DNA of 64,000 bases, from assembly GCA_963709345.1 (NCBI GenBank), contig CAVPVX010000007.1, positions 64,001 through 128,000 on the forward strand. Direction: 5' to 3'. This stretch comes from an uncultured Actinomycetes bacterium (GTDB lineage Bacteria > Actinomycetota > Thermoleophilia > UBA2241). Under the pieces are notes generated by a model. That model was not told the origin of the DNA. It did not search any database and worked only from the letters and a program-made list of their open reading frames with translations. A program made the translations under genes and the position numbers. Positions 37,241-61,394 of this stretch are shown here, piece after piece. How positions within the stretch are numbered: position 1 is the first letter of the stretch; every line of letters begins with the position of its first letter.

Positions 37241-37276
37241 AGGTGCCACGCTACGCTGTGGGGAGCGCTTGGGGGA

Positions 37277-37304: not shown

Positions 37305-37332
37305 TTGGCGAGATGCCGCCGAGCGCGGTGGG

Positions 37333-38106
37333 TCAGCGGCCGAGCGCCAGCCCGAGATAGGCGTCGATCAGCGCGTTGCCGGCGAAGAGGGCGACCACGG
37401 CCCCAGCAGCGAGGAACGGGCCGAAGGGGATCGCCGTCTTGCCGTCGCCCTTGCTCGCGGCGACCACCACGACACCGATGACGGCGCCGCTGAGGAAGCC
37501 GATGAAGAGCGCCGGCACGACCGCCGCGCCGAGGTAGATGCCCATGCACAGGGCGAGCTTGACGTCGCCGAACCCCATCCCCTCCAGGTGACGCACCCTG
37601 AAGTACACCTCGCTGATGAGGAAGAGGAAGGCGGCCGCCCCGAGGCCGGCGACCGGCCACTGCCACCACGCGCCGTCGCCGAGGACGATCATCAGCGGCA
37701 GGCCGACCGCGGCCACCGGCAGGATGACGATGTCGGGGATGATCCTGATCTCGAGGTCGACCTGGCTGATCAGCACCAGCGCCGAGACGAAGAGCAGGTG
37801 TGGGACGAGCAGCCACGAGAGACCATCCATGAGCGCGACACCCACGAAGAGCGCGGCCGTGAGAGCCTCTCCCGCGGGGTAGCGCCAGGAGATCGGCGCC
37901 CCGCAGTCCCGGCAGCGGCCGCGCAGCAGCAGCCAGCTCACGACCGGGATGTTGTCGTAGGCGCGGATCTGATGGCCGCAGTGCGGACAGTGCGAGCGGC
38001 CCTCCCGGATGCTCTCGTCGTGCGCCAGCCGGTACGCCCAGGCGTTGATGAAGCTGCCGATGATGAGGCCGTAGACGAGCGCGATGATGACGAGCAGCAC
38101 GGTCAT
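37333..38106 (-). CDS. pilD: Prepilin peptidase/N-methyltransferase PilD
   Basis: GSFIN, SHCPHC, DNIPVVSW...GRCRDC, D-containing IPD, GMGFGDVKL, IPFGPFL. Confidence 0.96.
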   Translation of the reverse strand: MTVLLVIIALVYGLIIGSFINAWAYRLAHDESIREGRSHCPHCGHQIRAYDNIPVVSWLLLRGRCRDCGAPISWRYPAGEALTAALFVGVALMDGLSWLLVPHLLFVSALVLISQVDLEIRIIPDIVILPVAAVGLPLMIVLGDGAWWQWPVAGLGAAAFLFLISEVYFRVRHLEGMGFGDVKLALCMGIYLGAAVVPALFIGFLSGAVIGVVVVAASKGDGKTAIPFGPFLAAGAVVALFAGNALIDAYLGLALGR

Positions 38107-38113
38107 GGCAGCC

Positions 38114-38554
38114 TCACGGCACGACGAAGTCGGCCTGGTCCTTGAGGAAGACCGTCAGACGATACGGCCGCGGCTGCGGGCCGGCCGTCTCCCGCGTGTA
38201 CGTGTAGTCGCCGAGCGAGCGCGCGGCGACCGTCCGCATGAGAGCCCCGTCGGAGAACGGGTTCTTCGGCCACTGGTCGGCATCCAGGTACATCGAGAGC
38301 GTGGCCGGGTCGCAGTGGCCGGGCCACGGGTCGTCGGCGTCCGACTCCGTCACGTAGCTGAGCAGCGCGATGGCGATGTGCCGGGCGCCGGAGCGCGCGG
38401 CCGCGTTCTTGGCACGCTCGCGCTGGCCCAGGTACATCGGGATCGCGATCGCTGCAAGGATGCCGATGATGACGATCACGAGAAGGACTTCGATCAGGCT
38501 GAAGCCGGCAGATGCTCCGCCCGGCCGGCCCCTTCGCACCCTGGCCATGCTCAT
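38114..38554 (-). CDS. Second type IV pilin (PilA paralog)
   Basis: G|[22 protein letters not shown]; shares WPxNPF and FVV motifs with pilA. Confidence 0.85.
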   Translation of the reverse strand: MSMARVRRGRPGGASAGFSLIEVLLVIVIIGILAAIAIPMYLGQRERAKNAAARSGARHIAIALLSYVTESDADDPWPGHCDPATLSMYLDADQWPKNPFSDGALMRTVAARSLGDYTYTRETAGPQPRPYRLTVFLKDQADFVVP

Positions 38555-39311
38555 CACTCGACGTAGTCCTTGAACAGCTCGGCGATGAGCGCGTCGAAGT
38601 CGGCCTTGGGCATGGTGTCGTAGAGCGGCGCCACGGCCTTCATGCGCGCCTCCTTCTCCTTCGGCAGGATGCGCTCCAGGCCGTCGACCGCCTTCTGGCG
38701 CGCGTACTTGTCGCCGGCGAGGTACGCCTGACCCCACATGAGGATCGCCTTCTCGTCGTCGCCGCCCTTGGAGAGCAGAGCGGCGGCGAGCCGCGGCAGG
38801 TACGCGGGACTGCCGGGGATCGCCGCCGCCTTCTCGTACCACTGCGCGGCCGCCAGATCGTTCTTGCTCCTTGCTGCCTGCGCCGTATTGATACGCGAAG
38901 AAGCCGAGATAGGCAGGGAAGCGCCACTCGTCCGGGTTCGCCTCTGAAGCCCCTCTCGAGCAGATTCGTACGCCGACGTCAGGGCGACCCGCGTCGACCA
39001 GCGCGAAGGCGCCAAAGCAGGTAGGCCCGCAGGAAGTGCGGACTGAGCGTCGTCACCAGGTCGACCATCTGCGGCAGGGAGTCGAGCTGTCCGTCACCCT
39101 CGAGGTGCTCGCCGTAGTACTGGACCATGCTCAGGTAGTAGACGTCGGCGATCGAGGTGCGAAAGCTGGGCGAGAAGTCCTCGAAGAACTGCGGCGACGG
39201 CACGAACACCCGCGGGTCGGCCGGCGCCCGGTCCGGCCGCGTCACCTGGTACGCGACGACCACGCCGGCGCAGGCCAGCACGACGAGCGTCGCGACCACG
39301 CGCCGCAGCAC
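38554..39311 (-). CDS. Membrane-anchored TPR-like protein (Myxococcus PilG/Geobacter XapA-like), broken by several indels
   Basis: Joining frames gives ...MVQYYG...LSPHFLRAY.FGAFAL...NPDEWRFPAYLGFF...AAQWYEKAAAIPGSPAYL; lies next to the ABC transporter genes. Confidence 0.65.
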
Positions 39312-39312
39312 G

Positions 39313-40078
39313 TCAGAACTCCTTGCGGCGGAACACGAGGGCGGCGAGCGCCAGCACTACGACGACGTAGGCGAACAGGTAGCCGCTCCACAGGGCGATC
39401 TCGCCCCACGCCAGCGTGTCCTCGCCGACCACTCCGGCCTTGACGTCCACGGCCGAGAAGTTCGGGATGATCACGTAGACGACCCACGAGAGCGCCTCGG
39501 TGACCACGTTCTTGCCGAGGCGCGTCAGCGCCAGCACGTTGTGGCTGAGCTGCCCGGCCACGAAGACGCAGATGCCGAGCACGCTGGCGAGGATCGCCGA
39601 GCCCATCGTCGAGAAGAAGATGGTCACCGCCATCACGGCCAGCAGTTGCACGTAGATCATGAGCACGGCGACGAGGAGCATGCCGGACGCGTCGCCGGCC
39701 ACCGCCCACACGAGCAGGAAGAGGAAGACGCCCATGCCCGCCAGCACCACGGCCATGGTCGCGCACAGGCCGAGGAACTTGCCGGTGATGAAGGCGCCGC
39801 GGCTCACCGGCTTGGAGAACAGCACGAACACGGTGCGCTTCTCGACCTCCTTGTGCACCAGCCCGGCGGCCACGAACACGGCGACGATGAGCCCGAAGAA
39901 GGTGACCGCGACGAGCCCGAAGTCCTTCATCATGCGCCCCTGCTCGCCGAGGCTGATGCTGCCGAGCCACAGCCCACCGACGATCATGATGAGCGCGAAG
40001 ACGACGATGACCGCCAGCACGCGGTCGCGGATCGTCTCCTTGAAGGTGTTGACGGCGATGGCGGCCGACCTGCTTCAC
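39313..40078 (-). CDS. ABC transporter permease (PilI-like), one +1 indel near the start
   Basis: AIAVNTFKETIRDRV, KEVEKRT....SKPVSR....GKFLG, multiple TM helices, VFRRKEF. Confidence 0.85.
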
Positions 40079-40859
40079 GCCGTCACCACCTTCATGAAGA
40101 AGTCCTCGAGCGTGGGCGCCTCCTCGAGCGCCTCATCCACGCTCCCGTGCCACACGACGCGCCCCTCGCGCATGATCGCGATCGTGCGAGCAGAGCTCGT
40201 GCACGTCGCTGAGGATGTGCGAGTTGAAGAGCACGGTCTTGCCGCGCTCGTGCAGGCTCTCGATGATGCGCTTGACCTCGACGCGCCCGACCGGGTCGAG
40301 CCCCGTCATGGGCTCGTCGAGCAGCACGAGCTCGGGGTCGTTGACGAGCGCCTGGGCGATGCCGATGCGCTGCAGCATGCCCTTGGAGTACTTGCGCAGA
40401 TGCGTATCCGCAGCCGCCTCGAGGCCCACGTCGGCGAGCAGGCCGTCCACCCGCTCCCGGCGCGCGCCCGCCTCGAGGCCGAAGAGCCGGCCGCAGAAGC
40501 CGAGGAACTCGCGCCCGGAGAGGTAGTCGTAGAAGTACGGGTTCTCGGGCAGGTAGCCGACGTGCGCGAGGCCCTCCGACGCCCAGATCCACCGTGCCCG
40601 ACGTGGGCCGCATCAGCCCGAGGGCGACCTTGACGGTGGTCGTCTTGCCGGCGCCGTTGGGCCCGAGGAGGCCGAACACGGCGCCGTGGTCCACCTGCAG
40701 ATCGACGCCCCTCAGGATCTCGACGGCGCGTCGCCGGAACCCCACGTGGACGGTCTTGCGCAGACCGCTGATCGAGCACGGCCGGACCTGACCCTGCGCG
40801 CCCGTCGCCGCGCCCGACTCGATCGCCTGACCGTCCTGCGTCGTCACTCTCGCAGCCAC
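40075..40859 (-). CDS. ABC transporter ATP-binding protein (PilH-like), two indels
   Basis: GPNGAGKTT; shifted frame [13 protein letters not shown]...YSKGMLQR...[10 protein letters not shown]...SHIL; final frame [12 protein letters not shown]. Confidence 0.85.
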
Positions 40860-41005
40860 CTCTCGCGTCCATCGTCACGTACGGCACTGCCCCGGGTCTG
40901 CCGCCGGAGCCGCCGGGCGCCGCAGCCTCTGGGCGCCCGGTGCGTCCGGATGTTCGCCACGGACCGCGCGCAGTCCTGCGCGTGGACTGCGGACGAAGGA
41001 ACGCA

Positions 41006-41036
41006 GAAGGGCGGGGCCTCGCGGCCCCGCCCCTTC
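41006..41036 (-). terminator. Intrinsic terminator downstream of pilA
   Basis: GGGCGGGGCC-GCGA-GGCCCCGCCC hairpin followed by TTCT. Confidence 0.7.
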
Positions 41037-41069
41037 ACACGCAGCTTCTTGCCTGCTAGCGATCAGGAC

Positions 41070-41458
41070 TCAGCGAACGACGAAGTTGCCCGCCGTCAGT
41101 CACCCCAAGGAGGGTGTAGTCAGTCCCAGCGGCAGACACGTACGTGAAGTTGCCCAGCGTACCCGCGTTCGCCATGGCGCCGCCGGTGAACGGGTTGTCC
41201 GGCCACGGGTCGAGCTCAGCGAGTGACCGCGGCGACCATGGCGGCCGTCAGTCGGATAGACGTCGTTGTTGTCGACGGCGAGCTCTGGACGCCGATCTGG
41301 ATGGCGTGGACGCCTTCCTTGACGCCGGCGTCCTTGGCCTTCTCACGCTGGTTGAGGAACATCGGGATCGCGATCGCGGCGAGGATGCCGATGATGATGA
41401 TCACGATCAGCAGCTCGATGAGGGTGAAACCCTTCTGGCTCTTGCGGAACCTCTTCAT
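41070..41458 (-). CDS. pilA: Major type IV pilin (3' half disrupted by indels in this assembly)
   Basis: [10 protein letters not shown]|[22 protein letters not shown]; other frames continue AVDNNDVYP...[11 protein letters not shown]...TLGNFTY...DYTLLG...NFVV; has its own promoter, leader and terminator. Confidence 0.85.
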
Positions 41459-41551
41459 GTCTTGGTCTCCTCTCGGTACGACTTCTCTGACGTTGACTCT
41501 GGCCTGGTGCTCCACCGCGGGGCCTGGTCCTCCTGCTCCCGCGGCGCCCCA

Positions 41552-41594
41552 CAAAAAGAGCCTGTGGGCTCCGGAACTCCGGGCACCACAGGCT
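41552..41594 (-). terminator. Riboswitch-controlled intrinsic terminator in the pilA leader
   Basis: AGCCTGTGG...CCACAGGCT stem followed by CTTTTTG. Confidence 0.8.
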
Positions 41595-41613
41595 GCGAGG
41601 TGTGAAACTCAGT

Positions 41614-41687
41614 GGCGGTAGCCCAGCCGACTCGGGGAGTCCTGTGGCTTTGCGCCCCACCTTCGCAAGTGGTTTGCCCTTTGCGCC
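41614..41687 (-). ncRNA. c-di-GMP-I (GEMM-I) riboswitch aptamer
   Basis: GGCGCAAAGGGCAAACCACTT-GCGA-AGGTGGGGCGCAAAGCCACAGG...GGGCTACCGCC matches the GEMM-I hallmarks GGCAAACC, GNRA loop, GCAAAGCC and GGGyTACC. Confidence 0.9.
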
Positions 41688-41728
41688 TTCCCTCCTATAG
41701 TGCCTCCTCGCCGGTTTCCTAGACACAT

Positions 41729-41755
41729 ACTTCGGCAGTTCGCCGCAACTCTTTA
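41729..41755 (-). promoter_or_regulatory. sigma28/WhiG-type promoter of the riboswitch-pilA unit (TAAA-N15-GCCGAAGT)
   Basis: Direct match with canonical 15-nt spacing, about 40 nt upstream of the aptamer. Confidence 0.75.
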
Positions 41756-41820
41756 CTGTTCTGACAACACTCTGCCCCACGCGGTGCGCCGCGGACTAGG
41801 ACGAACGTCTAGGGAGCGTC

Positions 41821-42562
41821 TCAGAAGACCTTGCGGCCGAGCACTTCCTTGAGCCGCCCGAGCGCCTTGATGCGACTCGCGCGAGACCTTCTTCTGCGTG
41901 AGCCCCAGCTCCTCCGCCACCTCGCTCTGCGTGAGGTCCTTGAAGAAGAGGAGGTAGATGAGCCGCCTCTGGAAGGCGGAGAGCCGGTCCATGGCCGCGT
42001 ACAGCGAGATGCGGTCCTCTATGGGGAGCGCGAACGACGCCTGGCGGACCGAGTGCACCATGCCCGGGTCGGCCTCGGCCTGGAGCTCGTCCGGTGTGAA
42101 CGGCTCGTCCTGACTGTGGAGCTGGATGCGCGAGTAGAGGTTCATCACCTCGAGGATGCCGGCCTCGTTGATGTTCAGCGCCTCGGCGAGCTCGGCCACC
42201 TCCGGCGGCCGGCCGAGCTTGTGCGAGAGCTCGCTGGATTTCCCCTGGATCTGGCCGTACACCTTCTTGACCCAGCGCGGCTGGCGCAGCAGCAGCGAGT
42301 CGCGCAGGTGGTGACGCAGCTCGCCGTCCACGATCGCCGTGGCGTAGGTGCTGAAGCGCACGCCGCGCCGCGCGTCGAAGCGCTGGGCCGCCTTGATCAG
42401 GCCGAGATTGGCGACCTGCAGCAGATCCTCGTAGGGCTCGCTCGCGTACGAGAAGCGCTTGAGGATGTGGTGCAGCAGGTTCTGGTTGCGGCGCACGACC
42501 TGGTCGAGCGCCGCCGGTGAGCCCGTCTCCGCGTAGGCGGCGAGGAGCTGCTCGTTCTCCAC
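41821..42562 (-). CDS. SigB/SigF/SigG-family RNA polymerase sigma factor embedded in the pilus operon (one +1 indel near the C-terminus)
   Basis: EDLLQVANLGLIKAAQRFD..RGVRFSTYA, LGRPP...ELAE.L, LTQSEVAEELGLTQKKVSR; removing one base near 41872 gives IKALGRLKEVLGRKVF*. Confidence 0.9.
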
Positions 42563-42577
42563 GCCACCCCCCGGGGT

Positions 42578-43792
42578 CTACTTGACGATGTTCATCATGT
42601 TGAAGATCGGCAGGTACATCGAGATCACGACGGTGCCGACGATGACGCCGACGCCGAGCATGAGGATGGGCTCGAGGATCGACGTGAGCGACTTGATGCT
42701 CGCGTTGACCTCGTCCTCGTAGAAGTCGGCGATCTTGCTCAGCATCGCATCGAGCGAGCCGGTCTCCTCCCCCACCGAGATCATCTGCGTGACCATGGGG
42801 GGGAACACCGAGACACTGGCTCAACGGCTCGGTGATGGACTGGCCCTCCTTGACGCTGGTCTGGACGTTGACCATCGCGTCCTCGATGACCACGTTGCCG
42901 GCCGCCTGGCCGGTGATCTCGATGGCCTGGAGGATGGGCACGCCGGAGCTGACGAGCGTGCCCAGTGTGCGCGAGAAGCGCGCCACGGCCAGCTTGCGCA
43001 CGATCTCGCCGATGCCCATGGGCACGTGCAGCTTGAAGCGGTCCCACACGTGCTGGCCGCGATCCGTGTGCTTGAGGCGGATCAGGCCCCAGATGAGGGC
43101 GATGATCGCCAGCGAAGACGATCAGCGCCCCACCAGCTGCGGAACACGCCCGAGATGCTCACCATGATCCGCGTGAGCAGCGGCAGCTGCGCGTCGCCGA
43201 GATCCTTGTACATGCCCGCGAAGATCGGGATCAGGAACAGCACCATGCCGATGAGCACCAGGATCGCGAAGCTGCCGATGAGCACCGGGTACACCATCGC
43301 CGACTTGACGGCGCGGCGGATCGCGTCTTCCTTCTCGAGTTGCTCGGCGAGGCGGTTGAGCACCTCGTCGAGGATGCCGCCGATCTCGCCGGCCCGGACC
43401 ATGCTGACGTAGAGCCGGCTGAAGACCTTGGGGTGCTTCTCCAGTGCGTCCGAGAGGCTGATGCCGGCCTCCACGTCCGCGCGGATCTGGCCGATGACCA
43501 CGGCGAACTTCTTGTTCGGCGTCTGCTCCTCGAGCACGTAGAGGCAGCGCAGCATCGAGAGGCCCGAGTTGACCATGGTCGCGAACTGGCGCGAGAAGAC
43601 GGTGAGATCCTTGGCCTTGATGCGGCCGCCGATCTGGATGCTGCCCAGCCCCTGCTTGACCTCGTTGAGGTCGAGCACGGTGAAGCCCTTGTTGCGCAGC
43701 GCCGCGGCAGCGGCGACCTTGGTCTCGCCCTCGATCTCGCCGCTGGCCTGGGTGCCGCGGGCGTCGAGCGCCTTGTAGGTGAAGTTAGCCAT
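42578..43792 (-). CDS. pilC: Type IV pilus platform protein PilC (three indels)
   Basis: FSRQFATMVNSGL, MVRAGEIGG.L, AMVYP; ARFSRTLGTLVSSGVP; FPPMVTQMISVGEETG.LD, LEP, MYLPIF. Confidence 0.9.
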
Positions 43793-43865
43793 TGCTCCCT
43801 TGACGCCCCCTTGGCGGCCGGTCATCCCGGCGCGCCCTTCGACGACTGGCGTTCACTTGTCTCTC

Positions 43866-43892
43866 TTATCGGCCCCGGCCGCGAATCCTGCA
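43866..43892 (-). promoter_or_regulatory. sigma28/WhiG-type promoter of pilC (TGCA-N15-GCCGATAA)
   Basis: Perfect sigma28 -10 octamer in the pilT-pilC gap; degenerate -35. Confidence 0.65.
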
Positions 43893-43896
43893 GCGC

Positions 43897-44979
<1,083 letters not shown>

Positions 44980-45007
44980 TTCCTCACACGCAGGTTGCCA
45001 GATCGGA

Positions 45008-46969
45008 TCAGATGATCACGCGGGCGATCTCTTCCACCGAAGTCATGCCGAGCAGCACCTTGTCGATGCCGTCCTCGCGCAGTGACTTCATCCCCTCAGC
45101 CGCGGCCACGCGGCTGATCTCGTCCGCGCTCTTGCGTTCGACCGTCAGCCTGCGGATGGCCTCGCTGACGATCATCACTTCGTAGAGCCCCAGCCGGCCC
45201 TTGTAGCCCGTACTGTTGCACCTCGAGCAGCCTTTTGCACGGTGCAGAACGACGTCATCCCGGTCACAAACCTCGGGCGGAAAATCGTTCTTGCGCAGCA
45301 TCTCCTTGGTGGCCGTGTAAGGCTCCTTGCAGTTGGAGCACAGACGCCGTGCCAGGCGCTGCGCCAACACGGCGTCGACCGCCGACGACGTCAGGAAGGG
45401 TTCGATGCCCATCTCCGTGAGGCGCGAGAGCGCCCCGGGGGCGTCGTTGGTGTGCAGCGTGCTCAGGACGAGGTGGCCGGTGAGCGCCGACTCGACGGCG
45501 ATCTGCGCCGTCTCGCGGTCGCGGATCTCGCCGACCATCACGATGTCTGGGTCGCAGCGCAGGATCGAGCGCAGCGCCGCGGCGAAGGTCATGCCGGCGC
45601 GCGTGTTCACCTGCACCTGGTTGATGCCGGTGAGGCGGTACTCCACCGGGTCCTCGACCGTGATGATGTTCTTCTCGGGATTGTTGAGGATGTTCAGCGC
45701 CGCGTAGAGCGTGGTCGACTTGCCGGAGCCCGTGGGCCCGGTGACGAGGATCGCGCCGTACGGCTTGGTGAACGACTTCTGGAAGCGTTTGAGCGCCTTC
45801 TCGCTGAAGCCCAGGTCCTCGAGGTTGAGCATCACGTTGCTCTTGTCGAGGAGGCGCATGACGACCTTCTCGCCGTACACCGTCGGCAGCGTGGCCACAC
45901 GCATGTCGATGGGCTTGCCGCCGACGATGAGCCCCATGCGGCCGTCCTGCGGAACGCGGCGCTCGGCGATGTCGAGCTCGGCCATGATCTTGAGGCGGCT
46001 CAGCACGCCGGCCTGCATGCGTCTCGGGATCGACATGATCTCGTGGAGCACGCCGTCGATGCGGAAGCGGATCACGAGCTCCTTCGCCTGGGGCTCGAAG
46101 TGGATGTCGCTGGCCCCGTCGTCCACGGACTGCGCGATCACGGAGTTCACCAGCTTGATGATCGGCGCCTCGTCGGTCGCGTCACGGATGTCGGTGAGCG
46201 ACTCCTCAGCCATCTCCGCCTGCGCCTGCTCGTCGGCGCTCTCGCCGATGTCGGCTCTGGAGCGGTAGATGCGCGCGATCGCCGTGTACACGTCCTCCTC
46301 GCTGGCGATCGCCGGCTGGATCTGGAACCCGGTGATGATCGCGAGGTCGTCGCGGGCCTGCAGGTTCTGCGGGTCGACCATCGCCACCAGCAGCGTGCCG
46401 TCGTCGAGGAAGCGCACCGGCAGCGCCCCGTAGCGGCGCGCCAGCTTCTCGTCGATGTAGGCGGTCGCGGCGCCGTCGAAGCGGGTCGCCGTGAGGTCGA
46501 GGAAGCTGACGCCGAACTTGCTCGCCAGCGCCTTGCTCAGATCCAGCTGCGTGACGATCCCGTCCTCGAGCAGGATCTGGCCCAGACGCTTGCGCGTCTC
46601 TTTCTGGCGGGAGAGCGCCTGCGTGACCTGCTCCTCGGTCACGAGGCCCATCTCTTTGAGGATGTCGCCGAGACGCAGCTTGCTGGTGCGTTCGCTGCGC
46701 ACGATGCTCTCAAGGACGTCGTCTGCCGTCACCGCATGGGGCTCCTCGCCGCCGGGCACGGACTCGGCGGCCGGCGTCCCGTTCCCGCCGGCCGGGCCCG
46801 CGTCTTCCCGGAGGAAGTCGTCCACGGCGTCGCCGACGGCGACGACCGTTGGGGCCGCGTCCTTGGGTCGTTCGGCCGATCCCATGAGCGGTTCCAGCTC
46901 GTCTCCTCCGTCGCCGGTCAGAATGCCTCTGCCGGTACTGTCGGTCACTCTGTCATCATCGGACTGCAT
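45008..46969 (-). CDS. pilB: Type IV pilus assembly ATPase PilB with a putative MshEN-type N-terminal domain
   Basis: RLGDIL...GLV..EQ...AL..Q and RLGQIL..GI (MshEN-like), ASDIHFEP, GPTGSGKST, LRCDPD, CSNC/CSRC zinc motifs. Confidence 0.95.
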   Translation of the reverse strand: MQSDDDRVTDSTGRGILTGDGGDELEPLMGSAERPKDAAPTVVAVGDAVDDFLREDAGPAGGNGTPAAESVPGGEEPHAVTADDVLESIVRSERTSKLRLGDILKEMGLVTEEQVTQALSRQKETRKRLGQILLEDGIVTQLDLSKALASKFGVSFLDLTATRFDGAATAYIDEKLARRYGALPVRFLDDGTLLVAMVDPQNLQARDDLAIITGFQIQPAIASEEDVYTAIARIYRSRADIGESADEQAQAEMAEESLTDIRDATDEAPIIKLVNSVIAQSVDDGASDIHFEPQAKELVIRFRIDGVLHEIMSIPRRMQAGVLSRLKIMAELDIAERRVPQDGRMGLIVGGKPIDMRVATLPTVYGEKVVMRLLDKSNVMLNLEDLGFSEKALKRFQKSFTKPYGAILVTGPTGSGKSTTLYAALNILNNPEKNIITVEDPVEYRLTGINQVQVNTRAGMTFAAALRSILRCDPDIVMVGEIRDRETAQIAVESALTGHLVLSTLHTNDAPGALSRLTEMGIEPFLTSSAVDAVLAQRLARRLCSNCKEPYTATKEMLRKNDFPPEVCDRDDVVLHRAKGCSRCNSTGYKGRLGLYEVMIVSEAIRRLTVERKSADEISRVAAAEGMKSLREDGIDKVLLGMTSVEEIARVII

Positions 46970-47795
46970 CTCGCATCACTTCCAGCGGCGCCGGCATGCC
47001 CGTCCACAGCGTGAACGCCTCGGCGGCCTGCCTCACCAGCATCTCGACGCCGTCGACCACCGTGGCCCCGCGAGCCCGCGCCACAGCGAGCAAGTCGGTC
47101 GGCGCGGTGGTGTATACCGCATCGAAGACGATTTGCCCCGCCGTTACAGTATCGGCCAGCAGCGCAGGGACTTTACCTTCGCCCGGCATCCCCAGCGGCG
47201 TCGCGTTGACCACCACCCGGTGCGCCGCGACGTCGGCGGCCGTCAGCGAAGACAACGCCTGGATCCGGCACACGGCGCCCGGAACGCCTGCGGCCATCAA
47301 CTCCACGAGACGCTCGGCCGCTCCGGGAGTGCGGTTGACGAGCGTGAGCGCGGCGCCCATGCGCGCCAGCGCCAGCGCCGCGGCCCGCGCCGCTCCTCCG
47401 GCGCCGAGGATCAGCGCCGGCTCGCCGCGCAGCGTGTCTCCCACGACCTCCGCCAAGGCTCCTCGCACGCCCTCCACATCGGTGTTGGACCCGCTAAGGC
47501 GGCCGTCGTCCACAACGATCGTGTTCACGGCCTCCACGATCCGCGCGTCCCCGGTCACCTCATCCAGATAGGGAAGGACGGCGCCCTTGTGCGGGATGGT
47601 GACGTTGGCGCCGCGGCAGCCCAGGGCCGCGAGGCCCCGCATCGCGGCGCCGACGCCGGCGGCGCGTACCGAGAAGGGCACGTAGACGTAGTCGAGTCCA
47701 AGCGCCTCGAAGGCGGCGTTGTGGAGCCGCGGCGACAGCGAGTGCGCTACGGGGTCGCCGATGATGCCGATGACCTGTGTGGTGCCCGTGACCGT
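46956..47795 (-). CDS. aroE: Shikimate dehydrogenase (apparent ACG start)
   Basis: In-frame upstream of the ORF call: VTGTTQVIGIIGDPVAHSLSPRLHN; then NVTIPHK, AVNT, NTDVEG, GAGGAARA, NATPLGM. Confidence 0.93.
   Translation of the reverse strand, partial: TVTGTTQVIGIIGDPVAHSLSPRLHNAAFEALGLDYVYVPFSVRAAGVGAAMRGLAALGCRGANVTIPHKGAVLPYLDEVTGDARIVEAVNTIVVDDGRLSGSNTDVEGVRGALAEVVGDTLRGEPALILGAGGAARAAALALARMGAALTLVNRTPGAAERLVELMAAGVPGAVCRIQALSSLTAADVAAHRVVVNATPLGMPGEGKVPALLADTVTAGQIVFDAVYTTAPTDLLAVARARGATVVDGVEMLVRQAAEAFTLWTGMPAPLEVMRDAVR
47149..47175 (-). promoter_or_regulatory. sigma28/WhiG-type promoter for pilB located inside aroE (TAAA-N15-GCCGATAC)
   Basis: Near-perfect consensus about 180 nt upstream of the pilB start. 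Confidence 0.7.
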
Positions 47796-54387: not shown

Positions 54388-55455
54388 TCAGGCGCGGCCC
54401 GGCAGGCCGCCGGCGATGATGCCGCCGCCCACGATGAGGTCGTCGCGGTAGAACACCGCGGACTGGCCCGGGGCGAGACCTGAAAACTCCTCGGCGAGCG
54501 TCACCGCGAGTTCGCCGTCGGCGCGACGCTGCAAACGGGCGACCGGCACCGCCGGGGAACGATAGCGCAGCTGCACGGAGAGCCCGTCACCGTCGCCGAG
54601 ACCACGATCGACCACTTCCCGAACCCGCGCGGCGCGCACGGCGAGGCGGTCGCGGCCGCCGACGACCACCTCGTTCTCGGCGGCCCTCCGCTCGATCACG
54701 TAGAGCGCGTACTCGGCGCTCACGCCCAGACCGCGCCGCTGTCCGACGGTGTACCGCCATTGACCGCGGTGTCGCCCCAGAACGGCGCCCGCTTCGTCCA
54801 CGATGTCGCCGTCGCCCGGCTCGGTCCCCCGTGCGTCGAGAAACCGCTGGTATCCCTCGACGGCGAAGCAGACTTCCTGACTCTCCGGCTCACCGGCCGC
54901 TTCAAGGCCGGCCGCGGCGGCGAGCGCGCGCACCTCGGTCTTGTTCAGCTCTCCCAATGGGAACTCCAGTCGCGCCAGCACGTCCGGCGGCACCGCCCAG
55001 AGCATGTACGACTGGTCCTTGTGACGGTCGGCGGCGCGAGCCACGAAGGGCTCGCCCGCGTGCCACACGAGCCTCGCGTAGTGCCCTGTGACGAGCCGCG
55101 CGAGCCCCAGCTCGCCGGCAAGCCCGGCGAGCGCCGCCAGGCGCAGCGGGTTGCACGCAGCGCACGGGTTCGGTGTCTCGCCTCCCAGGTATCCGCGCTC
55201 GAAGGAGCCCACCACGGCGTCCTCGAAAGCAGCCTCGAGGTCGAGCACGTGGTGCCGCAGACCGAGAGACGCCGCCGTCCGCGCCGCCCGTTGAAGGGAA
55301 CCCGGCGAACAGCAGCTCCGCCGGTCCGAGCCGGGCCACAGGCGCGCCGTCGCGGTCTCGACGCCGCACCCGTCGCCGCTCAGCAGGAGCGCAGCGACGG
55401 CGCTGTCGACCCCACCGCTCAGCGCGACGAGGGCGCCTGCGCTTTTGGGGACGAT
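54388..55455 (-). CDS. mnmA: tRNA 2-thiouridine(34) synthase MnmA (no canonical start codon; overlaps the iscU 3' end in the -1 frame)
   Basis: ALSGGVDSAV, SCCS, TPNPCAACN, TGHYAR, KDQSY, ESQEVCF, YTVGQRRGL, APGQSAVFY. Confidence 0.92.
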   Translation of the reverse strand: MVPKSAGALVALSGGVDSAVAALLLSGDGCGVETATARLWPGSDRRSCCSPGSLQRAARTAASLGLRHHVLDLEAAFEDAVVGSFERGYLGGETPNPCAACNPLRLAALAGLAGELGLARLVTGHYARLVWHAGEPFVARAADRHKDQSYMLWAVPPDVLARLEFPLGELNKTEVRALAAAAGLEAAGEPESQEVCFAVEGYQRFLDARGTEPGDGDIVDEAGAVLGRHRGQWRYTVGQRRGLGVSAEYALYVIERRAAENEVVVGGRDRLAVRAARVREVVDRGLGDGDGLSVQLRYRSPAVPVARLQRRADGELAVTLAEEFSGLAPGQSAVFYRDDLIVGGGIIAGGLPGRA

Positions 55456-55853
55456 GAGAGGACCTCCACGACCTCGGCCTCGCGACCGGCATTCAACAGG
55501 TAGTCCCGGATCGCCAGGTGGAGCGCATCGGCGGCCAGGTTGGAGCAGTGCAGCTTCTGCGGCGGCAGGCCGCCCAGCGCCTCGGCCACGTCGGTGTTGG
55601 AGATGGCCGCCGCCTCCTTGAGCGTCCTGCCCTTCACCATGACGGTGACCATACTCGACGTCGCCACCGCGGCGCCGCAGCCGAACGTCTTGAACCGCGC
55701 GTCGGTGATGCGGTCGTGAGCGTCGACGGCGATGCTGATCCGAAGGACGTCGCCGCAGGTCCCGTCTCCGATCTCGCCGACCCCGCCGGCGCCTTCGATG
55801 TCACCGACGTTACGCGGCTCGATGAAGTGATCCATGACGGAGTCGGAGTACAT
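55419..55853 (-). CDS. iscU: Fe-S scaffold protein IscU/NifU-N
   Basis: YS..VMDHF..PRNVG, CGD, KTFGCG, LGGLPPQKLHCSNL. Confidence 0.93.
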   Translation of the reverse strand: MYSDSVMDHFIEPRNVGDIEGAGGVGEIGDGTCGDVLRISIAVDAHDRITDARFKTFGCGAAVATSSMVTVMVKGRTLKEAAAISNTDVAEALGGLPPQKLHCSNLAADALHLAIRDYLLNAGREAEVVEVLSSSPKAQAPSSR

Positions 55854-55856
55854 CGG

Positions 55857-57014
55857 TCATCCCTTCGTGTAGAGCGGGCTCATGCGCCGCAGCTTCTCGA
55901 CGATCGGCGGGAACGCCTGGAGGAACGCCTCGACCTCGGCGGTCGTGTTCCCCCGGCCGAGGCTGAGCCGCAGGCTCCCGTGCGCTTCCTTGACGGGCAC
56001 GCCCAGAGCGAGCACCACGGGCGACGGCTCCTCCGAGCCGGTCGCGCAGGCCGAGCCGCTCGAGACCATGAATCCCTGAGCGTCCAGGTGCAGGAGCATG
56101 GATTCGCCCTCGACGTAGCGCACCGTGATGGCCACGTTCCCCGGGAGCCGCCGGGTGGGGTGCCCCAACAGCGTGACGTCCGGAACGCTCTCGTGCAGCC
56201 GCCGGACGATCTCGTCACGCAGCGCCTCGACACGCGGGCGCGCCTCCGGCATCGCCTCCGTGGCGAGCGTCATCGCCTCACCGAGCCCGACGACACCGGG
56301 CACGTTCTCGGTGCCCGAGCGCAGCCGGCGCTCCTGCCCGCCGCCGTGGACGATCGGCGTGAGCCGCGTCCCCCGCTTGACGTAGAGCGCCCCGACGCCC
56401 TTGGGGCCGTACAGCTTGTGCCCGGACAGACTCAGGAGGTCGACTCCGAGGTCACACACGTCCACGGGAAGCGCGCCGACAGCCTGGACGGCGTCGGTGT
56501 GGAAGACGGCGCCCCGGGCGTGCGCGATGCGCGCCAGCTCCGCGACCGGCTGGATCGTCCCTACCACGTTGTTCGCGAGCATGATGGAGACGAGCCGCGT
56601 CTCGCTGCGAAAGGCCTGCTCGTAGGCGTCACGATCGACCACTCCCCAAGCGTCTACCGGCACGCGGTCCACGGCCCAGCCGGCGCGCTCGAGAGCCCGC
56701 GCCGGCTCCATGACGGCAGGGTGCTCGACGGCGCTCACGATCAGGTGACCGGGAGGAGACCCCCGCAGGTAGCCGAGCAGCGCGAGGTTGTCGGCCTCGG
56801 TGCCGCCGCTGGTGAAGACGATCTCCTTCTCGCCGGCGCCGAGCGCGGCGGCCACGCGGGCGCGAGCCTCGTCGACGGCCGCGCGCGCGACGCGGCCCAG
56901 GCGGTGCAGCTCCGATGGGTTACCGTACCCCTCGCTGAAGAAAGGCAGCATCGCCTCGAGGACACGGGGGTGCACCGGCGTGGTCGCCGCATGATCGAAG
57001 TACACGCTCGTCAT
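55857..57014 (-). CDS. iscS: Cysteine desulfurase
   Basis: YFDHAATTP, GNPS, FTSGGTEADN, HTDAVQ, SGHKLYGPKG, SSGSAC. Confidence 0.96.
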   Translation of the reverse strand: MTSVYFDHAATTPVHPRVLEAMLPFFSEGYGNPSELHRLGRVARAAVDEARARVAAALGAGEKEIVFTSGGTEADNLALLGYLRGSPPGHLIVSAVEHPAVMEPARALERAGWAVDRVPVDAWGVVDRDAYEQAFRSETRLVSIMLANNVVGTIQPVAELARIAHARGAVFHTDAVQAVGALPVDVCDLGVDLLSLSGHKLYGPKGVGALYVKRGTRLTPIVHGGGQERRLRSGTENVPGVVGLGEAMTLATEAMPEARPRVEALRDEIVRRLHESVPDVTLLGHPTRRLPGNVAITVRYVEGESMLLHLDAQGFMVSSGSACATGSEEPSPVVLALGVPVKEAHGSLRLSLGRGNTTAEVEAFLQAFPPIVEKLRRMSPLYTKG

Positions 57015-57424
57015 CGAGACACCGTCTCCCTCGTCAGATCGTCCAGAGTGATGCTGTTCAGAGCTCCGCTGATCGCACTGTCGAGCTTGCGCCACGCCAC
57101 CCGCGACGCACACGACCCGGCGCGCTCGCAGGCGGCCCCGTCGGGAACGCACTCCACCAGGGCCAGCGGACCATCCAGAGTGGTCACCACATCTCCCACG
57201 GCGATCCCGGCGGCGTCCGCGGCGAGCCGATATCCGCCGGCCGCGCCGCGCGTCGCCTTGACCAGACCACCCTCCCGCAGCCTCCCGAGGATCCGCTCGA
57301 GAAAGGCGGCGGGAATGCCCTCCTCCGCGGCGATCTCCGACAGGGGGACGGGCCGCGCGTCGCCTTCGCGGGCCAGATAGACCATGGCCCTCAGGCCGTA
57401 CTCACAGCGTGAAGTGATGCGCAC
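57011..57424 (-). CDS. Rrf2 family transcriptional regulator (IscR-like, three Cys)
   Basis: RITSRCEYGLRAM, RGAAGGYRL, C-x6-C-x5-C. Confidence 0.9.
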   Translation of the reverse strand: MRITSRCEYGLRAMVYLAREGDARPVPLSEIAAEEGIPAAFLERILGRLREGGLVKATRGAAGGYRLAADAAGIAVGDVVTTLDGPLALVECVPDGAACERAGSCASRVAWRKLDSAISGALNSITLDDLTRETVSR

Positions 57425-57449
57425 GAGGCTCCAGATGCCGGACGGGAAG

Positions 57450-57501
57450 AATCCCAACCGAAATGGTTGGCATTATGCTACCACGCCCGTCCCCCCGTCA
57501 A
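57450..57501 (-). promoter_or_regulatory. Promoter (TTGACG-N18-CATAAT) with a downstream palindromic Rrf2 operator CCAACC-N5-GGTTGG
   Basis: Motifs seen directly upstream of the Rrf2 gene. Confidence 0.65.
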
Positions 57502-57559: not shown

Positions 57560-58096
57560 TCAGAGGCCGCGCACGGCGTCGGCGATCTCCTGCTCCATCA
57601 CTTCGAAGCCGATCCAGCCGGTGTAGAGCTGGGCCACCTGGCCGTCGCCGCGGATGATCGCGAGGATCGGCGGGTCGCTGACGCGCAACTGCATCAGGGT
57701 GTCGCCCAACTGCTTGGACTCGCGCGCCTCGAAGGCGAGGAACGTGCTGTCGGCCGCGTAGTTCGCCTTGACGTCGTTGAAGTACGAGAGCATCTCCATG
57801 TCGTCGGTAGCGCCGCTGACGTAGACGAGGAGGACGATGCCGCGCTTCTCTTCGAGCCGCTTCGTGATGAAGCTCGGGGTCTCGGCCGTGGGCTCGATCG
57901 TCAGAGGGGCGTAGCCCGTCATACCGTAGCTGCTGACGGTGTTGTACGAATCGGGCGCTTCGAGCGCCGCGGGAGCGGTCGCCTCAGCCGCCGCCAAAAC
58001 GCGTACGGCGACGACCCCGCCGAACAGGAGCGCCCCCACCACGAGGATCAGCGCCGCGGTGAGCAGGAACGTCCGGTTCCGTTTGAAGATCCCCAT
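57560..58096 (-). CDS. Membrane-anchored thioredoxin-like protein lacking cysteines
   Basis: N-terminal TM helix; IVLLVY-SGATDD in place of CxxC; V.DPP...IIRGDG.V...YTGW pattern. Confidence 0.55.
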   Translation of the reverse strand: MGIFKRNRTFLLTAALILVVGALLFGGVVAVRVLAAAEATAPAALEAPDSYNTVSSYGMTGYAPLTIEPTAETPSFITKRLEEKRGIVLLVYVSGATDDMEMLSYFNDVKANYAADSTFLAFEARESKQLGDTLMQLRVSDPPILAIIRGDGQVAQLYTGWIGFEVMEQEIADAVRGL

Positions 58097-58117
58097 GCCG
58101 GCCTCCTGAAGAGAAGC

Positions 58118-58264
58118 GCTCCACCTTGCCGTGCTCGCATTATTCTCGAACCTGCTATCGCAGGTGGGTGCTCTCCCGGCGCATCCACGGATGGTCCGAA
58201 GAACGAGCTCCCGATGTGTTCGTGTTGGCTCGAGAATGCCGCGAGGTCACAAACAAGGTCGAGC
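58118..58264 (-). ncRNA. ssrS: 6S RNA
   Basis: Rod fold GCTCGACCTTG/CAAGGTGGAGC and ATTCTCGAGCC/GGTTCGAGAAT, central bubble, GGGAGCTC/GAGCACCCACCTG hallmark motifs; downstream of aspS as in many Firmicutes. Confidence 0.85.
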
Positions 58265-58270
58265 CACGGC

Positions 58271-58299
58271 ATCCTAGCAAACGTCAACTGATTCAACAA
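58271..58299 (-). promoter_or_regulatory. Housekeeping promoter of 6S RNA (TTGTTG-N17-TAGGAT with TG extension)
   Basis: The -10 box ends 6 nt before the predicted 6S 5' end. Confidence 0.65.
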
Positions 58300-58301
58300 A
58301 C

Positions 58302-58328
58302 TAGTCGGCAGCCCTGCAAAAAGCTTGA
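58302..58328 (-). promoter_or_regulatory. sigma28/WhiG-type promoter upstream of 6S RNA (TCAA-N15-GCCGACTA)
   Basis: Same motif and spacing as the four pilus promoters. Confidence 0.6.
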
Positions 58329-58365
58329 GTGCTGCGCCTGAAGCGGTACCGCGCGCGGTGCGGGG

Positions 58366-60129
58366 TTACCCGAGGCGGACGCGCAACTCCTTGAGCTGAC
58401 CGGCGGTGACCGCCCCCGGCGCGGCCGTCATAGGGTCGCCGCCCGAGGACGTCTTGGGGAAGGCAATGACGTCGCGGATCGAGTCGGCGCCGGCGAGCAG
58501 CATGATGATGCGATCGAAGCCCAGGCCGATGCCCCCGTGCGGCGGCGCGCCGTAGTCCAGCGCCTCGAGGAACCAGCCGAAGGCCTCGTCGATACGCGCG
58601 TCGTCCATACCCAGAGCGCGCAGGATGGCGCGCTGGACGACGGCGTCGTGGTTGCGCAGGGAACCGGAGCCCAGCTCGACGCCGTTCAGCACCAGGTCGT
58701 ACTGCGCGCCGCGCACGGCGAGCGGGTCGCTCTCGAGGAGCGGCATCGTCGCCTCGGTCGGCAGGCTGAACGGGTTGTGGCCGTACGTGAGCGCACCCGT
58801 CTCCTTGTCGATCTCGAACAGCGGGAATTCCTCTACCCAGAGGAGCGCCCAGCGGTCGGAGGGCCTGGGCGCGAGGAGCCCGATGAGGGCGAGGCGCAGG
58901 GCGCCGAGCACCTCGGCGGCGACGGGCGACTCGTCGGCGGCGAAGACGATGAGGTCGCCGGGCTCGCCGCCGCAGCGCTCGACGAGCGCGGCCTGCTCGG
59001 CCTCCGCGAGGAACTTGACGATGGGGCCGCGCAGCGCGCGGCCTTCCTCGACGTACACGTAGGCCATGCCCTTGGCGCCGTGCTCTTTGGCGTGCTCGGT
59101 GAGTCTGTCGATCTGCGCCCGGCTGAGCGAACCGCCGCCGGGCGCCCGGATCGCGCGCACGACGCCGCCCGCTTCGACGGCGCCGCGGAAGACCTTGAAC
59201 GCGCTCGCCGCGAACGTCTCACTGAGCTCGACGATCTCGAAGCCGTAGCGCAGGTCGGGTTTGTCGCTGCCGTAGCGCAGCATCGCCTCGTCGTACGTGA
59301 GGCGCGGGAGCGGAGTGGCGGGCGGGGTCTCCCCCGCGCCCTCGAAGATCGCGGTCATGAGGCCCTCGAGCAACTCGCGGATCTCGGGCACGGTGAGGAA
59401 CGACATCTCGAGGTCGATCTGCGTGTGCTCGGGCTGGCGATCGGCGCGCAGGTCCTCGTCGCGGAAGCAGCGCGCGAACTGGTAGTAGCGGTCGACACCT
59501 CCCACCATGAGGATCTGCTTGAACATCTGTGGGGACTGCGGGAGCGCGTAGAAGCGGTGCGGCTGCAGGCGCGAGGGCACGAGGAAGTCACGAGCGCCCT
59601 CGGGCGAGGACTTCGTCAGGTCGGGCGTCTCGACCTCGAGGAAGCGGTTCGCGTTGAGGAACGCCCGCGCCGCCTGCGTCGCGGCATGCCGCAATTCGAG
59701 GTTGGCCAGCATCGGGGCGCGGCGCAGATCGAGATAGCGATACTTGAGACGGAGGGTCTCGTCGACGTCGACCTGCTCGGCGCTCTCGATCTCGAAGGGC
59801 GGTGTCTTGGCGCGGCCCAGGATCTCGAGAGCATCAACCTGCACCTCCACGTCGCCGCTCGGCAGGTTCGGGTTCACCGTCTCCGTGGAGCGGGCGACGA
59901 CCACGCCGCGGATGCCGAGCACGTATTCAGGACGCACCTGTTCGGCAAGCGCGTGCTCGGCGGCGGCGTGCGACGGGTCGACCACCAGTTGCACGAGGCC
60001 ACTGCGGTCGCGCAGGTCGATGAAGATGAGGCCGCCGTGGTCGCGCCGGCGAGCGACCCAGCCGGCCAGGCTCACGGCGCGGCCGACGTCACCGGCGCGC
60101 AGCTCTCCGGGATACGCATCGCGCAGCAT
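58366..60129 (-). CDS. aspS: Aspartate--tRNA ligase
   Basis: RRRDHGGLIFIDLRD, LRLKYRYLDLR, PEGARDF, LPQSPQ, FRDEDLRADRQPE, GAPPHGG. Confidence 0.97.
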   Translation of the reverse strand: MLRDAYPGELRAGDVGRAVSLAGWVARRRDHGGLIFIDLRDRSGLVQLVVDPSHAAAEHALAEQVRPEYVLGIRGVVVARSTETVNPNLPSGDVEVQVDALEILGRAKTPPFEIESAEQVDVDETLRLKYRYLDLRRAPMLANLELRHAATQAARAFLNANRFLEVETPDLTKSSPEGARDFLVPSRLQPHRFYALPQSPQMFKQILMVGGVDRYYQFARCFRDEDLRADRQPEHTQIDLEMSFLTVPEIRELLEGLMTAIFEGAGETPPATPLPRLTYDEAMLRYGSDKPDLRYGFEIVELSETFAASAFKVFRGAVEAGGVVRAIRAPGGGSLSRAQIDRLTEHAKEHGAKGMAYVYVEEGRALRGPIVKFLAEAEQAALVERCGGEPGDLIVFAADESPVAAEVLGALRLALIGLLAPRPSDRWALLWVEEFPLFEIDKETGALTYGHNPFSLPTEATMPLLESDPLAVRGAQYDLVLNGVELGSGSLRNHDAVVQRAILRALGMDDARIDEAFGWFLEALDYGAPPHGGIGLGFDRIIMLLAGADSIRDVIAFPKTSSGGDPMTAAPGAVTAGQLKELRVRLG

Positions 60130-61394
60130 CAGGTCTCCTTCTCGAGCCGTGTGGCGACCAGTGACGGCAACTCGGCGGCGGCGACGTCCTCTTCCCCGCC
60201 GCCCTTCATCCCGCGCAGACGCACGGCTCCCTCGTCGAGCTCCTCGAGGCCGACGAGCGCGGCGAACGAGGCGCCGGCGCGTCCGGCCTGCTTGAGCTGG
60301 CCCTTGGGGCTGCGCCCGGCCAGGTCGAGGTCGGCGGCGAGGCCGGCGGCGCGCAGGCTCTGCGCCAGCGCGAACGCCGCCGGTCGCGCCTCGTCGGCGA
60401 AGCAGACGACGTAGACGTCGGGCGTGCCGCCGACGGCGAGAGGCTCGCGCATCGCCAGGGCGATGCGCTCGAGGCCGCTGCCCCAACCCACGCCCGCCGT
60501 CGGAGACCCGCCGATCTGCTCGACGAGCCCGTCGTAGCGTCCGCCGCCGCCGACGCCGCTCTGCGCGCCGAGCCGGTCGGAGTTGAACTCGAAGGTGGTG
60601 CGCGTGTAGTAGTCGAGGCCGCGCACCAGACGGAAGTCGAGCTGCGGCTCCAGCCCGGCGCCGCGGACGAGAGCCAGCACGGCGTCGAAGTGATCGCGGC
60701 AGTCCGCGCACAGGTGGTCGCCGATGCGCGGAGCCTCGTCGAGCACCGCGCGGCAGCTCTCGACCTTGCAGTCGAACGTGCGCAGCGGGTTGAGGTCGAG
60801 CCGCTCGACGCAGTCGCCGCAGAGCTCGCCCTTGCGCTCGCGCAGGGAGTCACGCAGCTTGGCGACGTATGCCGGCCTGCAGGCCGCATCGCCCATGCTG
60901 TTCATAGTGAGGGTGGCGCCCTCCACGCCGAGCTCGGAGAAGATGGCCGCCAGCAGCGTGATGACCTCGGCGTCCACGGCGGGCTCGGCTGAACCGATCG
61001 CCTCGGCGCCGAACTGGTAGTGCTCGCGGTAGCGGCCGGCCTGGGGCTTCTCGTAGCGGAACATCGGGCAGTAGTACCAGAGCTTCACCGGCTGGGGCAG
61101 CTTGTGCATGCCGTGCTCGACGTAGGCGCGGCAGATCGGGGCCGTTCCCTCGGGGCGCAGCGTGAGCGAGCGGTCGCCCTTGTCGGTGAAGGTGTACATC
61201 TCCTTGCGCACGATGTCCGTGGCCGCGCCGACGCCGCGCTCGAACAGCCCCGTCTCCTCGAACTCGGGTGTGACCACGTGCCGGTACCCGTAAGCGGCGA
61301 AGACCCGCGCAGCCGCCGCGACTACGGCGTCACGCTGCTCGGCGTCGTCCGGAAGCAGGTCGTAGGTGCCCTTGGGGGCGCGCGGAGAGCTCAC
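60129..61394 (-). CDS. hisS: Histidine--tRNA ligase
   Basis: PKGTYD, LRPEGTA, FRYEKPQAGRYR, LVRGLDYYT, GGGRYDGL. Confidence 0.97.
   Translation of the reverse strand: MSSPRAPKGTYDLLPDDAEQRDAVVAAAARVFAAYGYRHVVTPEFEETGLFERGVGAATDIVRKEMYTFTDKGDRSLTLRPEGTAPICRAYVEHGMHKLPQPVKLWYYCPMFRYEKPQAGRYREHYQFGAEAIGSAEPAVDAEVITLLAAIFSELGVEGATLTMNSMGDAACRPAYVAKLRDSLRERKGELCGDCVERLDLNPLRTFDCKVESCRAVLDEAPRIGDHLCADCRDHFDAVLALVRGAGLEPQLDFRLVRGLDYYTRTTFEFNSDRLGAQSGVGGGGRYDGLVEQIGGSPTAGVGWGSGLERIALAMREPLAVGGTPDVYVVCFADEARPAAFALAQSLRAAGLAADLDLAGRSPKGQLKQAGRAGASFAALVGLEELDEGAVRLRGMKGGGEEDVAAAELPSLVATRLEKET

Follow-up and report, generated by a model that had tools for sequence, protein, structure and literature searches.

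The window analysed here is a stretch of 64,000 nucleotides (nt) of contig CAVPVX010000007.1 (assembly GCA_963709345.1, positions 64,001 to 128,000). It belongs to the 3.1-Mb genome of an uncultured member of the Thermoleophilia, a soil actinobacterium. The minus strand of the window carries a gene for 6S RNA (ssrS), and upstream of this gene stand two overlapping promoter-like elements: a proximal one of the sigmaA type and a distal one of the type attributed to WhiG, a sigma factor of the sigma28 family. We propose that, in Thermoleophilia, WhiG under the control of cyclic di-GMP (c-di-GMP) directly transcribes 6S RNA, so that the promoter region would act as a feed-forward device for sigma competition. 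The probability of this reading is put at roughly 0.35. 6S RNA is a textbook RNA regulator of RNA polymerase, and to our knowledge the control of its synthesis is poorly known outside E. coli and Bacillus.

The genome studied here is called G000, and labels of the form G0xx denote relatives. Promoter, motif and covariation counts for the class are based on 90 6S loci, which belong to the families f1 (the own family, n=41), f2 (n=16), f4 (n=17), f6 (n=9) and f7 (n=7). Comparisons of folds and leaders at the genus level are based on 22 sequences. A preliminary description of the locus had placed the RNA in the context of mycobacteria and streptomycetes; this had to be corrected, as the host is an uncultured member of the Thermoleophilia.

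Identity, structure and distribution of the 6S RNA

There is hardly any doubt that the minus-strand locus is a real 6S RNA, compact like that of the whole class. The covariance model RF00013 matched positions 58267–58114 (154 nt, E 2.2e-12) over model positions 1–187. The preliminary description had suggested checking its 6S assignment with Infernal, and the score of 72.6 bits against an Rfam gathering score of 46.4 bits confirmed it. In the whole-genome search with this model, the locus was the sole match. The 154-nt sequence folded with −70.9 kcal/mol, while 200 dinucleotide shuffles had a mean of −51.65 kcal/mol (z −5.03) and none of the 200 was as stable.

The fold consists of a closing stem, in which GCUCGACCUUG is paired with CAAGGUGGAGC, a central bubble, whose 5' side has ~14 unpaired bases and whose 3' side carries a small hairpin, and an apical stem. 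About 33 model positions are missing, and they fall in the apical stem, which is shortened. The predicted primary transcript reaches from ~58264 to ~58117 and thus comprises 147–148 nt (147 nt for 58264–58118), and both its length and its fold agree with the 147-nt rod with a central bubble that had been described before. Across the 90 class sequences, RNAalifold yielded a consensus rod of 40 pairs with 93.0% canonical cells, and 28 pairs had double-sided changes. The RNA resembles the 6S/SsrS family (RF00013) in its full-model match, its closing stem, its central bubble with the 3'-side hairpin and its apical stem. It differs from E. coli SsrS (184 nt) and Aquifex aeolicus 6S (~160 nt) by its length of only 147–154 nt and its truncated apical stem.

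Of 41 close relatives, 33 had 6S; among these relatives were 24 further genus members, of which 21 had it. In the RF00013 search of 151 class genomes, it was found in 124 (106 above the cut-off), and none of the 12 genomes of family f5 had a match. Full-model matches across the class were ~150–176 nt long, so compactness is a trait of the class. The short length noted in the preliminary description is therefore not special to this genome. The usual 6S length of 180–200 nt, which is not reached here, is typical of the family and does not define it.

Two promoter motifs upstream of the 6S gene

The proximal promoter consists of a −35 hexamer TTGTTG (58299–58294), a 17-nt spacer and a −10 hexamer TAGGAT (58276–58271). 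Together with the TG extension at 58279–58278, the extended −10 reads TGcTAGGAT (58279–58271). A −10 of the form TAnnnT was found at this site in all 90 class 6S loci, which bears out the earlier claim of a sigmaA-type promoter directly upstream of 6S. The TG extension was present in 70 of the 90 loci (f1 41/41, f2 0/16, f4 15/17, f6 7/9, f7 7/7), and a −35 of the TTG or TGG type with a spacing of 16–18 nt in 69 of 90. In 59 of 90 loci, the −10 ended 3 nt before the Rfam 5' end. This places the predicted start near 58264. A simple sigma-70 consensus scan of 57900–58500 called no promoter, the scan being too strict for the proximal site; this putative promoter is recognisable through conservation only.

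For WhiG of the Actinomycetota, the published consensus is XT(C/A)AX at −35 and GCCGA at −10 (PMC13595943). The distal element consists of CTCAAG (58329–58324) as the −35, a 14-nt spacer and GCCGACTA (58309–58302) as the −10, and it agrees with this consensus in the form CTCAA-N15-GCCGA at 58329–58305. In the classical spelling, it is TCAA (58328–58325)-N15-GCCGACTA, present at 58328–58302 as the preliminary description had it. Its predicted start (~58295–58293) lies within the sigmaA −35 hexamer, ~30 nt upstream of the proximal start.

The motif CTCAA-N15-GCCGA occurred once in the window (expected: 0.12), and at least one copy was found in 10 of 100 shuffles. As this count for a single window is within chance, the case for the distal element rests on comparative data. 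In the genus alignment, conservation set in abruptly at CTCAAG. Upstream of this box, even the DNA of G000 and G004, with 99% identity between their 6S genes, gave no alignment. In five genus members (G003, G006, G009, G070 and G082), the intervening sequence was another one, and a complete CTCAA-N15/16-GCCGA lay ~20 nt further upstream.

Class-wide, we counted XT(C/A)AX-N14-16-GCCGA within 130 nt upstream of 6S on the 6S strand. The motif was found in 53 of 90 genomes; when the same windows were read as their reverse complement, 1 of 90 held it. As background, the flanks (183,670 nt) held 33 sites, which corresponds to 0.023 per 130 nt; the value for the own genome was 0.020. By family, the counts were 38/41 in f1, 9/16 in f2, 5/17 in f4, 0/9 in f6 and 1/7 in f7, the last rising to 4/7 when one mismatch in the first two −10 bases was allowed. 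The motif stood before 6S in 15 of 40 genera. With the sites anchored on the −10, (C)TCAAG and (T)GCCGA were at least 90% conserved in every column, and the spacers varied between genera. The distance to 6S ranged from −28 to −95 across the class loci, and at least four arrangements in separate lineages retained the bipartite motif.

Judged from the sequence comparisons, the distal element is in all likelihood a genuine bipartite motif under selection. Fixed boxes with variable spacers and positions, and the ratio of 53/90 to 1/90, make a second, WhiG-type promoter likely. We consider tandem sigmaA and WhiG-type promoters before 6S probable. Of the sigma28-type promoter claimed in the preliminary description, the conserved motif holds; the sigma factor is of the WhiG kind that goes with pili and c-di-GMP, not of a flagellar kind.

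WhiG and its motif in the rest of the genome

Among the predicted WhiG targets, c-di-GMP enzymes and genes for type IV pili are the most widespread (PMC13595943). In G000, the motif takes the form CTCAA[G/C] or TAAAG, N14-16 and GCCGA, and it stands before genes of both classes (Table 1). The site before pilB is located within a shikimate dehydrogenase gene, in its 3' part. The site before the c-di-GMP-I riboswitch reads TAAAG-N14-GCCGAAGT. With both this motif and the riboswitch ahead of it, the pilin-like gene would be under double c-di-GMP control, by the sigma factor and by the riboswitch. A near-WhiG motif (CTCACC-N17-GCCGATAC) was found near position 261906 of contig C7, before the c-di-GMP-I-GGC riboswitch. 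Over the whole genome, CT[AC]AA-N15/16-GCCGA occurred 52 times, while ~35 occurrences were expected from the box frequencies. Of these 52 sites, 20 were outside long open reading frames (ORFs) with a high GC content at third codon positions, the ORF map being rough.

Of 151 class genomes, 137 had a WhiG-family sigma factor above the curated cut-off, as did all 15 genus genomes. Four surveyed genomes were without whiG; three of them were without the motif and one had it, which is too few for a correlation. The whiG orthologue of G000 was matched in two adjacent pieces (142.3 and 117.4 bits), and the C-terminal piece best matched NF004935 WhiG. The frame was intact (264–265 amino acids, aa) in 7 of 12 genus loci examined.

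Table 1. Features of the 6S region and WhiG-type sites elsewhere in G000 (window positions unless a contig is given)
Feature	Position	Strand	Basis or remark
6S RNA (ssrS) gene	58114..58267	minus	Rfam RF00013 match, fold, covariation
sigmaA-type promoter (predicted)	58271..58299	minus	sequence and conservation in 90 class loci
WhiG/sigma28-type promoter-like element	58302..58329	minus	sequence, conservation, published consensus
Pyrimidine-rich trailer (CUUCUCUUC), then ribosome-binding site AGGAGG	58097..58116	minus	sequence
Downstream ORF, 178-aa membrane-anchored protein	57560..58096	minus	start 18 nt after Rfam 3' end
aspS (aspartyl-tRNA synthetase)	58366..60711	minus	Pfam tRNA-synt_2, GAD and OB anticodon domains
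WhiG-type motif before pilM	34280–34253	minus	
WhiG-type motif, then c-di-GMP-I riboswitch (41688–41614) and pilin-like gene	41755–41729	minus	
c-di-GMP-I riboswitch	41614–41688	minus	57.3 bits; before pilin-like gene 41216–41554 (N_methyl motif)
WhiG-type motif before pilB	47175–47152	minus	
WhiG-type motif before HD-GYP protein, EAL response regulator, GGDEF-GAF protein	other contigs		
WhiG-type motif before NlpC/P60-SLH protein, CAP protein, LuxR-type regulator, pseudopilin-like protein	other contigs		
c-di-GMP-I-GGC riboswitch	G000:C7:261922-262001 (L082:123-202)	plus	73.4 bits
whiG orthologue	G000:C7:51093-51771	minus	12 kb before the window; between xerC-like gene and rpsB

The 3' end and the downstream gene

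No terminator-like site was found in 57900–58500 by a generic scan, and there was no separate terminator hairpin. Some transcripts therefore probably run on into the downstream gene for the membrane protein. A T-rich stretch after the 6S closing stem was present in 56 of 90 class loci.

The downstream protein has an N-terminal membrane anchor and matched no Pfam or NCBIfam family. Homologues of 174–197 aa stood directly after 6S in f1, f2, f4 and f6, and the pairwise E values of seven proteins outside the genus to the G000 protein were between 6e-19 and 2e-5. The relatives found for the downstream gene all came from metagenome-assembled genomes labelled Thermoleophilia or Actinomycetota. By eye, an ORF was found 2–25 nt after 6S in 18 of 19 newly fetched f1 loci, 13 of 14 f4 loci, 6 of 6 f6 loci and 4 of 4 loci of genus g7 of f2. 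The N-termini of these ORFs were basic and then hydrophobic or contained a lipobox. The family can be described as membrane-anchored proteins or lipoproteins of ~175 aa (loci L012, L015, L017, L020, L025, L028 and L029). In a protein atlas, the G000 protein was placed near thioredoxin-fold proteins (0.90–0.92), which is a lead and not a finding; by eye, the usual CxxC stretch reads ATDD.

The evidence from RNA libraries consists of assembled contigs. Lake metatranscriptome contigs (X1) covered 58119–58250 with 95–99% identity and had adapter at both ends. The contig end at 58119 against the adapter is a weak hint of a discrete 6S 3' end. A contig from a sediment run (X2) covered 57991–58238 and spanned the 3' part of 6S into the ORF; it was less than 90% identical and hence from a relative, and the library may hold DNA. 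Contigs X8 and X9 covered the downstream ORF only.

Proposed mechanism

On grounds of homology, the 6S RNA would be expected to resemble an open promoter and to bind the housekeeping sigmaA holoenzyme, from which the synthesis of product RNA would free it. The sigmaA holoenzyme would start near 58264 and the WhiG holoenzyme at ~58295–58293. As the latter start lies inside the sigmaA −35, competition between both holoenzymes for this DNA would be expected. The ~30 extra nt at the 5' end appear to carry no conserved structure and to leave the rod undisturbed; they would presumably be trimmed or tolerated.

The release of WhiG from its anti-sigma factor would then switch on pili and c-di-GMP enzymes and simultaneously raise the level of 6S, which sequesters sigmaA. 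Free WhiG would add 6S synthesis that is independent of sigmaA, and the extra 6S would leave less sigmaA holoenzyme free, to the advantage of the WhiG programme. That an alternative sigma factor feeds 6S to tilt sigma competition, as the preliminary description suggested, is a reasonable inference. In E. coli, 6S is reported to inhibit a class of promoters that have a weak −35 or an extended −10 (PMC13492112). With its weak −35 and extended −10, the proximal promoter would by analogy belong to the 6S-sensitive class and may be self-limiting. If so, the WhiG promoter would be the sole input that escapes the feedback.

Alternative explanations

A number of observations weigh against transcription of 6S by WhiG. 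The relatives are non-independent samples, which affects all conservation counts. Of 86 genomes holding or seeming to hold whiG, 34 had no such motif ahead of 6S, and G140 had the motif while no whiG was detected in it. The RNA-library contigs (58119–58250 and 57991–58238) stop short of the promoters, with no coverage of 58260–58420, and no transcript 5' end was seen. Other points of this kind fit an explanation with the sigmaA promoter only, in which the block from CTCAAG to the −35 would be an UP-like or activating stretch, a transcription-factor site or the remnant of an old −35. Within the genus, the whole 65-nt block was conserved including the spacers, beyond what promoters need, so another factor may be bound there; the block also contains TTTTT at about −58 to −54. 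Families f4 and f6 have TTGCCG at the position of the sigmaA −35. As this is their likely −35, part of the GCCGA signal in these families may be a −35 hexamer, and in f2 the GCCGA −10 box and the place of the sigmaA −35 overlap. The distal −10 of G000 is GCCGACTA and mostly GCCGACAA in the genus, and it departs from the best sites of the own genome (GCCGATA[C/G]). Finally, compared with 11 relatives, the G000 whiG has 1 nt inserted and is thereby split in two frames; if this break is real, the distal promoter would be idle in the G000 strain. The pilC gene of the same assembly lies in three frames, so the whiG break may be an assembly error. The sigmaA-only explanation does not account well for the way in which the element moves. 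The spacing of both boxes was retained where the element is shifted to −64, as in the five genus members mentioned above, and likewise in G155, G027, G078 and G090, where it lies at −88 to −95. Between genera, the spacers varied but CTCAAG and GCCGA stayed. No dyad symmetry of the repressor type was seen by eye, and the motif equals that before the pilus and c-di-GMP genes of G000. We regard the explanation with the sigmaA promoter only as rather unlikely.

Transcription by WhiG might also serve the downstream membrane-protein gene in the main, with 6S as its 5' leader and an excised by-product. The missing terminator between 6S and the ORF, the ribosome-binding site within 8–13 nt, the recurrence of the ORF family after 6S in four families of the class and the bridging X2 contig, with the caveats given above, are in line with this. 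However, any transcript from the distal start passes through 6S and would also yield 6S, so that the two readings are compatible; moreover, the T-rich tails, present in 56 of 90 loci, suggest termination of many transcripts at that place, and the end of the X1 contigs points weakly in the same direction. That the downstream gene is the main target thus seems improbable. More improbable still, to the point that we give it hardly any credit, is a switch in which the long isoform refolds, opens the closing stem and alters its function. The preliminary description had proposed such a built-in alternative fold, and the complementarity behind it does exist: TGCCGTG (58271–58265) followed by GCTCG can pair with CGAGC-ACGGCA (58137–58127), which gives 7 + 4 pairs with one bulge in G000 and its nearest relative G004. 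The fold itself was absent from both the minimum free energy (MFE) structure and the ensemble. For the 178-nt transcript from ~58294, the MFE structure retained the canonical rod (−73.1 kcal/mol, versus −71.0 kcal/mol for the short form), and forcing the alternative helix gave −63.4 kcal/mol, which is 9.7 kcal/mol worse. The pairing of the leader heptamer with the 3' arm had an ensemble probability of 0.00 in all 22 genus sequences, and the probability of the closing stem stayed at 0.89–0.91 in the long isoform. The heptamer TGCCGTG was found in only 2 of the 22 sequences (G000 and G004), the commonest form being TGGCGCG. As the distance of the distal promoter also varies by lineage, no particular leader can be required.

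The related idea that the RNA refolds into an mRNA leader for the downstream gene did not hold either: duplexes between leader and trailer were no better than those of shuffled leaders (median z +0.51, n=22). A helix between the leader and the start-codon region in the read-through fold of G000 was rejected as chance (G000 z 0.07, set against the same genus median).

Neighbouring genes

On the upstream side, aspS ends 36 nt before the CTCAAG box, and its true start is probably internal to the listed ORF. Downstream of the 6S unit, a block at 55419–57457 (minus strand) contains genes for an Rrf2-family regulator, a class-V aminotransferase resembling cysteine desulfurase, a NifU-like scaffold and MnmA, i.e. 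iron-sulfur and tRNA-thiolation genes. A frameshift in MnmA had been suspected, but its N-terminus was in frame and none was found.

The type IV pilus cluster lies at 31016–47681 (minus strand) and comprises pilM/N/O, a prepilin peptidase, a pilin, pilC, a pilT-like gene and pilB. A gene of the SigB/SigF/SigG type (41753–42562, minus strand) stands directly upstream of the unit of riboswitch and pilin-like gene. It was considered as a second FliA-like reader of the motif and rejected, as it is SigB/F/G-like and its score of 166.8 bits is below the cut-off of 234. The pilC gene (42578–43852, minus strand) is divided into 43082–43852, a frame with the second T2SSF domain, and 42578–42820. An ABC ATPase gene (40133–40450) appears to be truncated at the N-terminus. 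The broken pilC and ABC ATPase genes reflect either indel errors of the assembly or gene decay.

Relation to known systems

Among the papers listed in the literature search, none was found that links 6S to sigma28, FliA, WhiG or SigD. No description of 6S in Rubrobacter or the Thermoleophilia was found either; listings in earlier surveys may exist. The surveys of Barrick (2005) and Wehner (2014) are reported to list some deep-branching actinobacteria with 6S. The E. coli ssrS promoters are reportedly of the sigma70/sigmaS type (Kim and Lee 2004), and the distal promoter here would differ from them in being of the sigma28/WhiG type. For the actinobacterial phylum, recent papers, among them PMC9130861, describe canonical 6S as not identified, apart from a candidate in Streptomyces.

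Transcription of E. coli ssrS starts from two promoters in tandem, P1 and P2; the precursors are trimmed at the 5' and 3' ends, and the gene is co-transcribed with ygfA (PMC12152304 and PMC2848244). The locus here is similar in its two tandem promoter motifs, a predicted longer precursor that would need trimming, the lack of a strong terminator and the linked downstream protein gene. It differs in that the promoters overlap, with predicted starts ~30 nt apart, and in that the downstream gene encodes an unrelated membrane-anchored protein.

With the WhiG regulon of the Actinomycetota, in which c-di-GMP control acts via the anti-sigma factor RsiG, the G000 sites share the consensus and the target classes (PMC13595943). 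The search reported there covered up to 200 bp from the start codon with a 16-nt spacer, while before 6S the spacer is 15 nt and the next start codon is ~210 nt away. The text of that paper contains no occurrence of Thermoleophilia, 6S or ssrS; its supplementary tables may list sites close to genes of this family in other taxa. In Cupriavidus metallidurans, a candidate promoter of the extracytoplasmic function (ECF) type with a mapped start lies 248 bp upstream of ssrS. It is discussed in PMC13492112 in connection with sigma competition, and the 6S abundance was unchanged. An alternative-sigma motif upstream of 6S is common to both cases; the sigma family is another one, and the case there concerns one species.

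Significance

The 6S RNA described here is a new member of a known family, and its putative wiring to a sigma28-family factor is new. A whole deep-branching class of actinobacteria carries a canonical and very short 6S. Provided that it functions as homology predicts, the 147-nt RNA sets the lower bound on the length of a working 6S. If the proposal is true, WhiG would have a new class of target in an RNA that acts on RNA polymerase. If the wiring holds, second-messenger signalling would be linked to global sigma competition, and the locus would offer a testable case of an alternative sigma factor that furthers its own access to the core polymerase.

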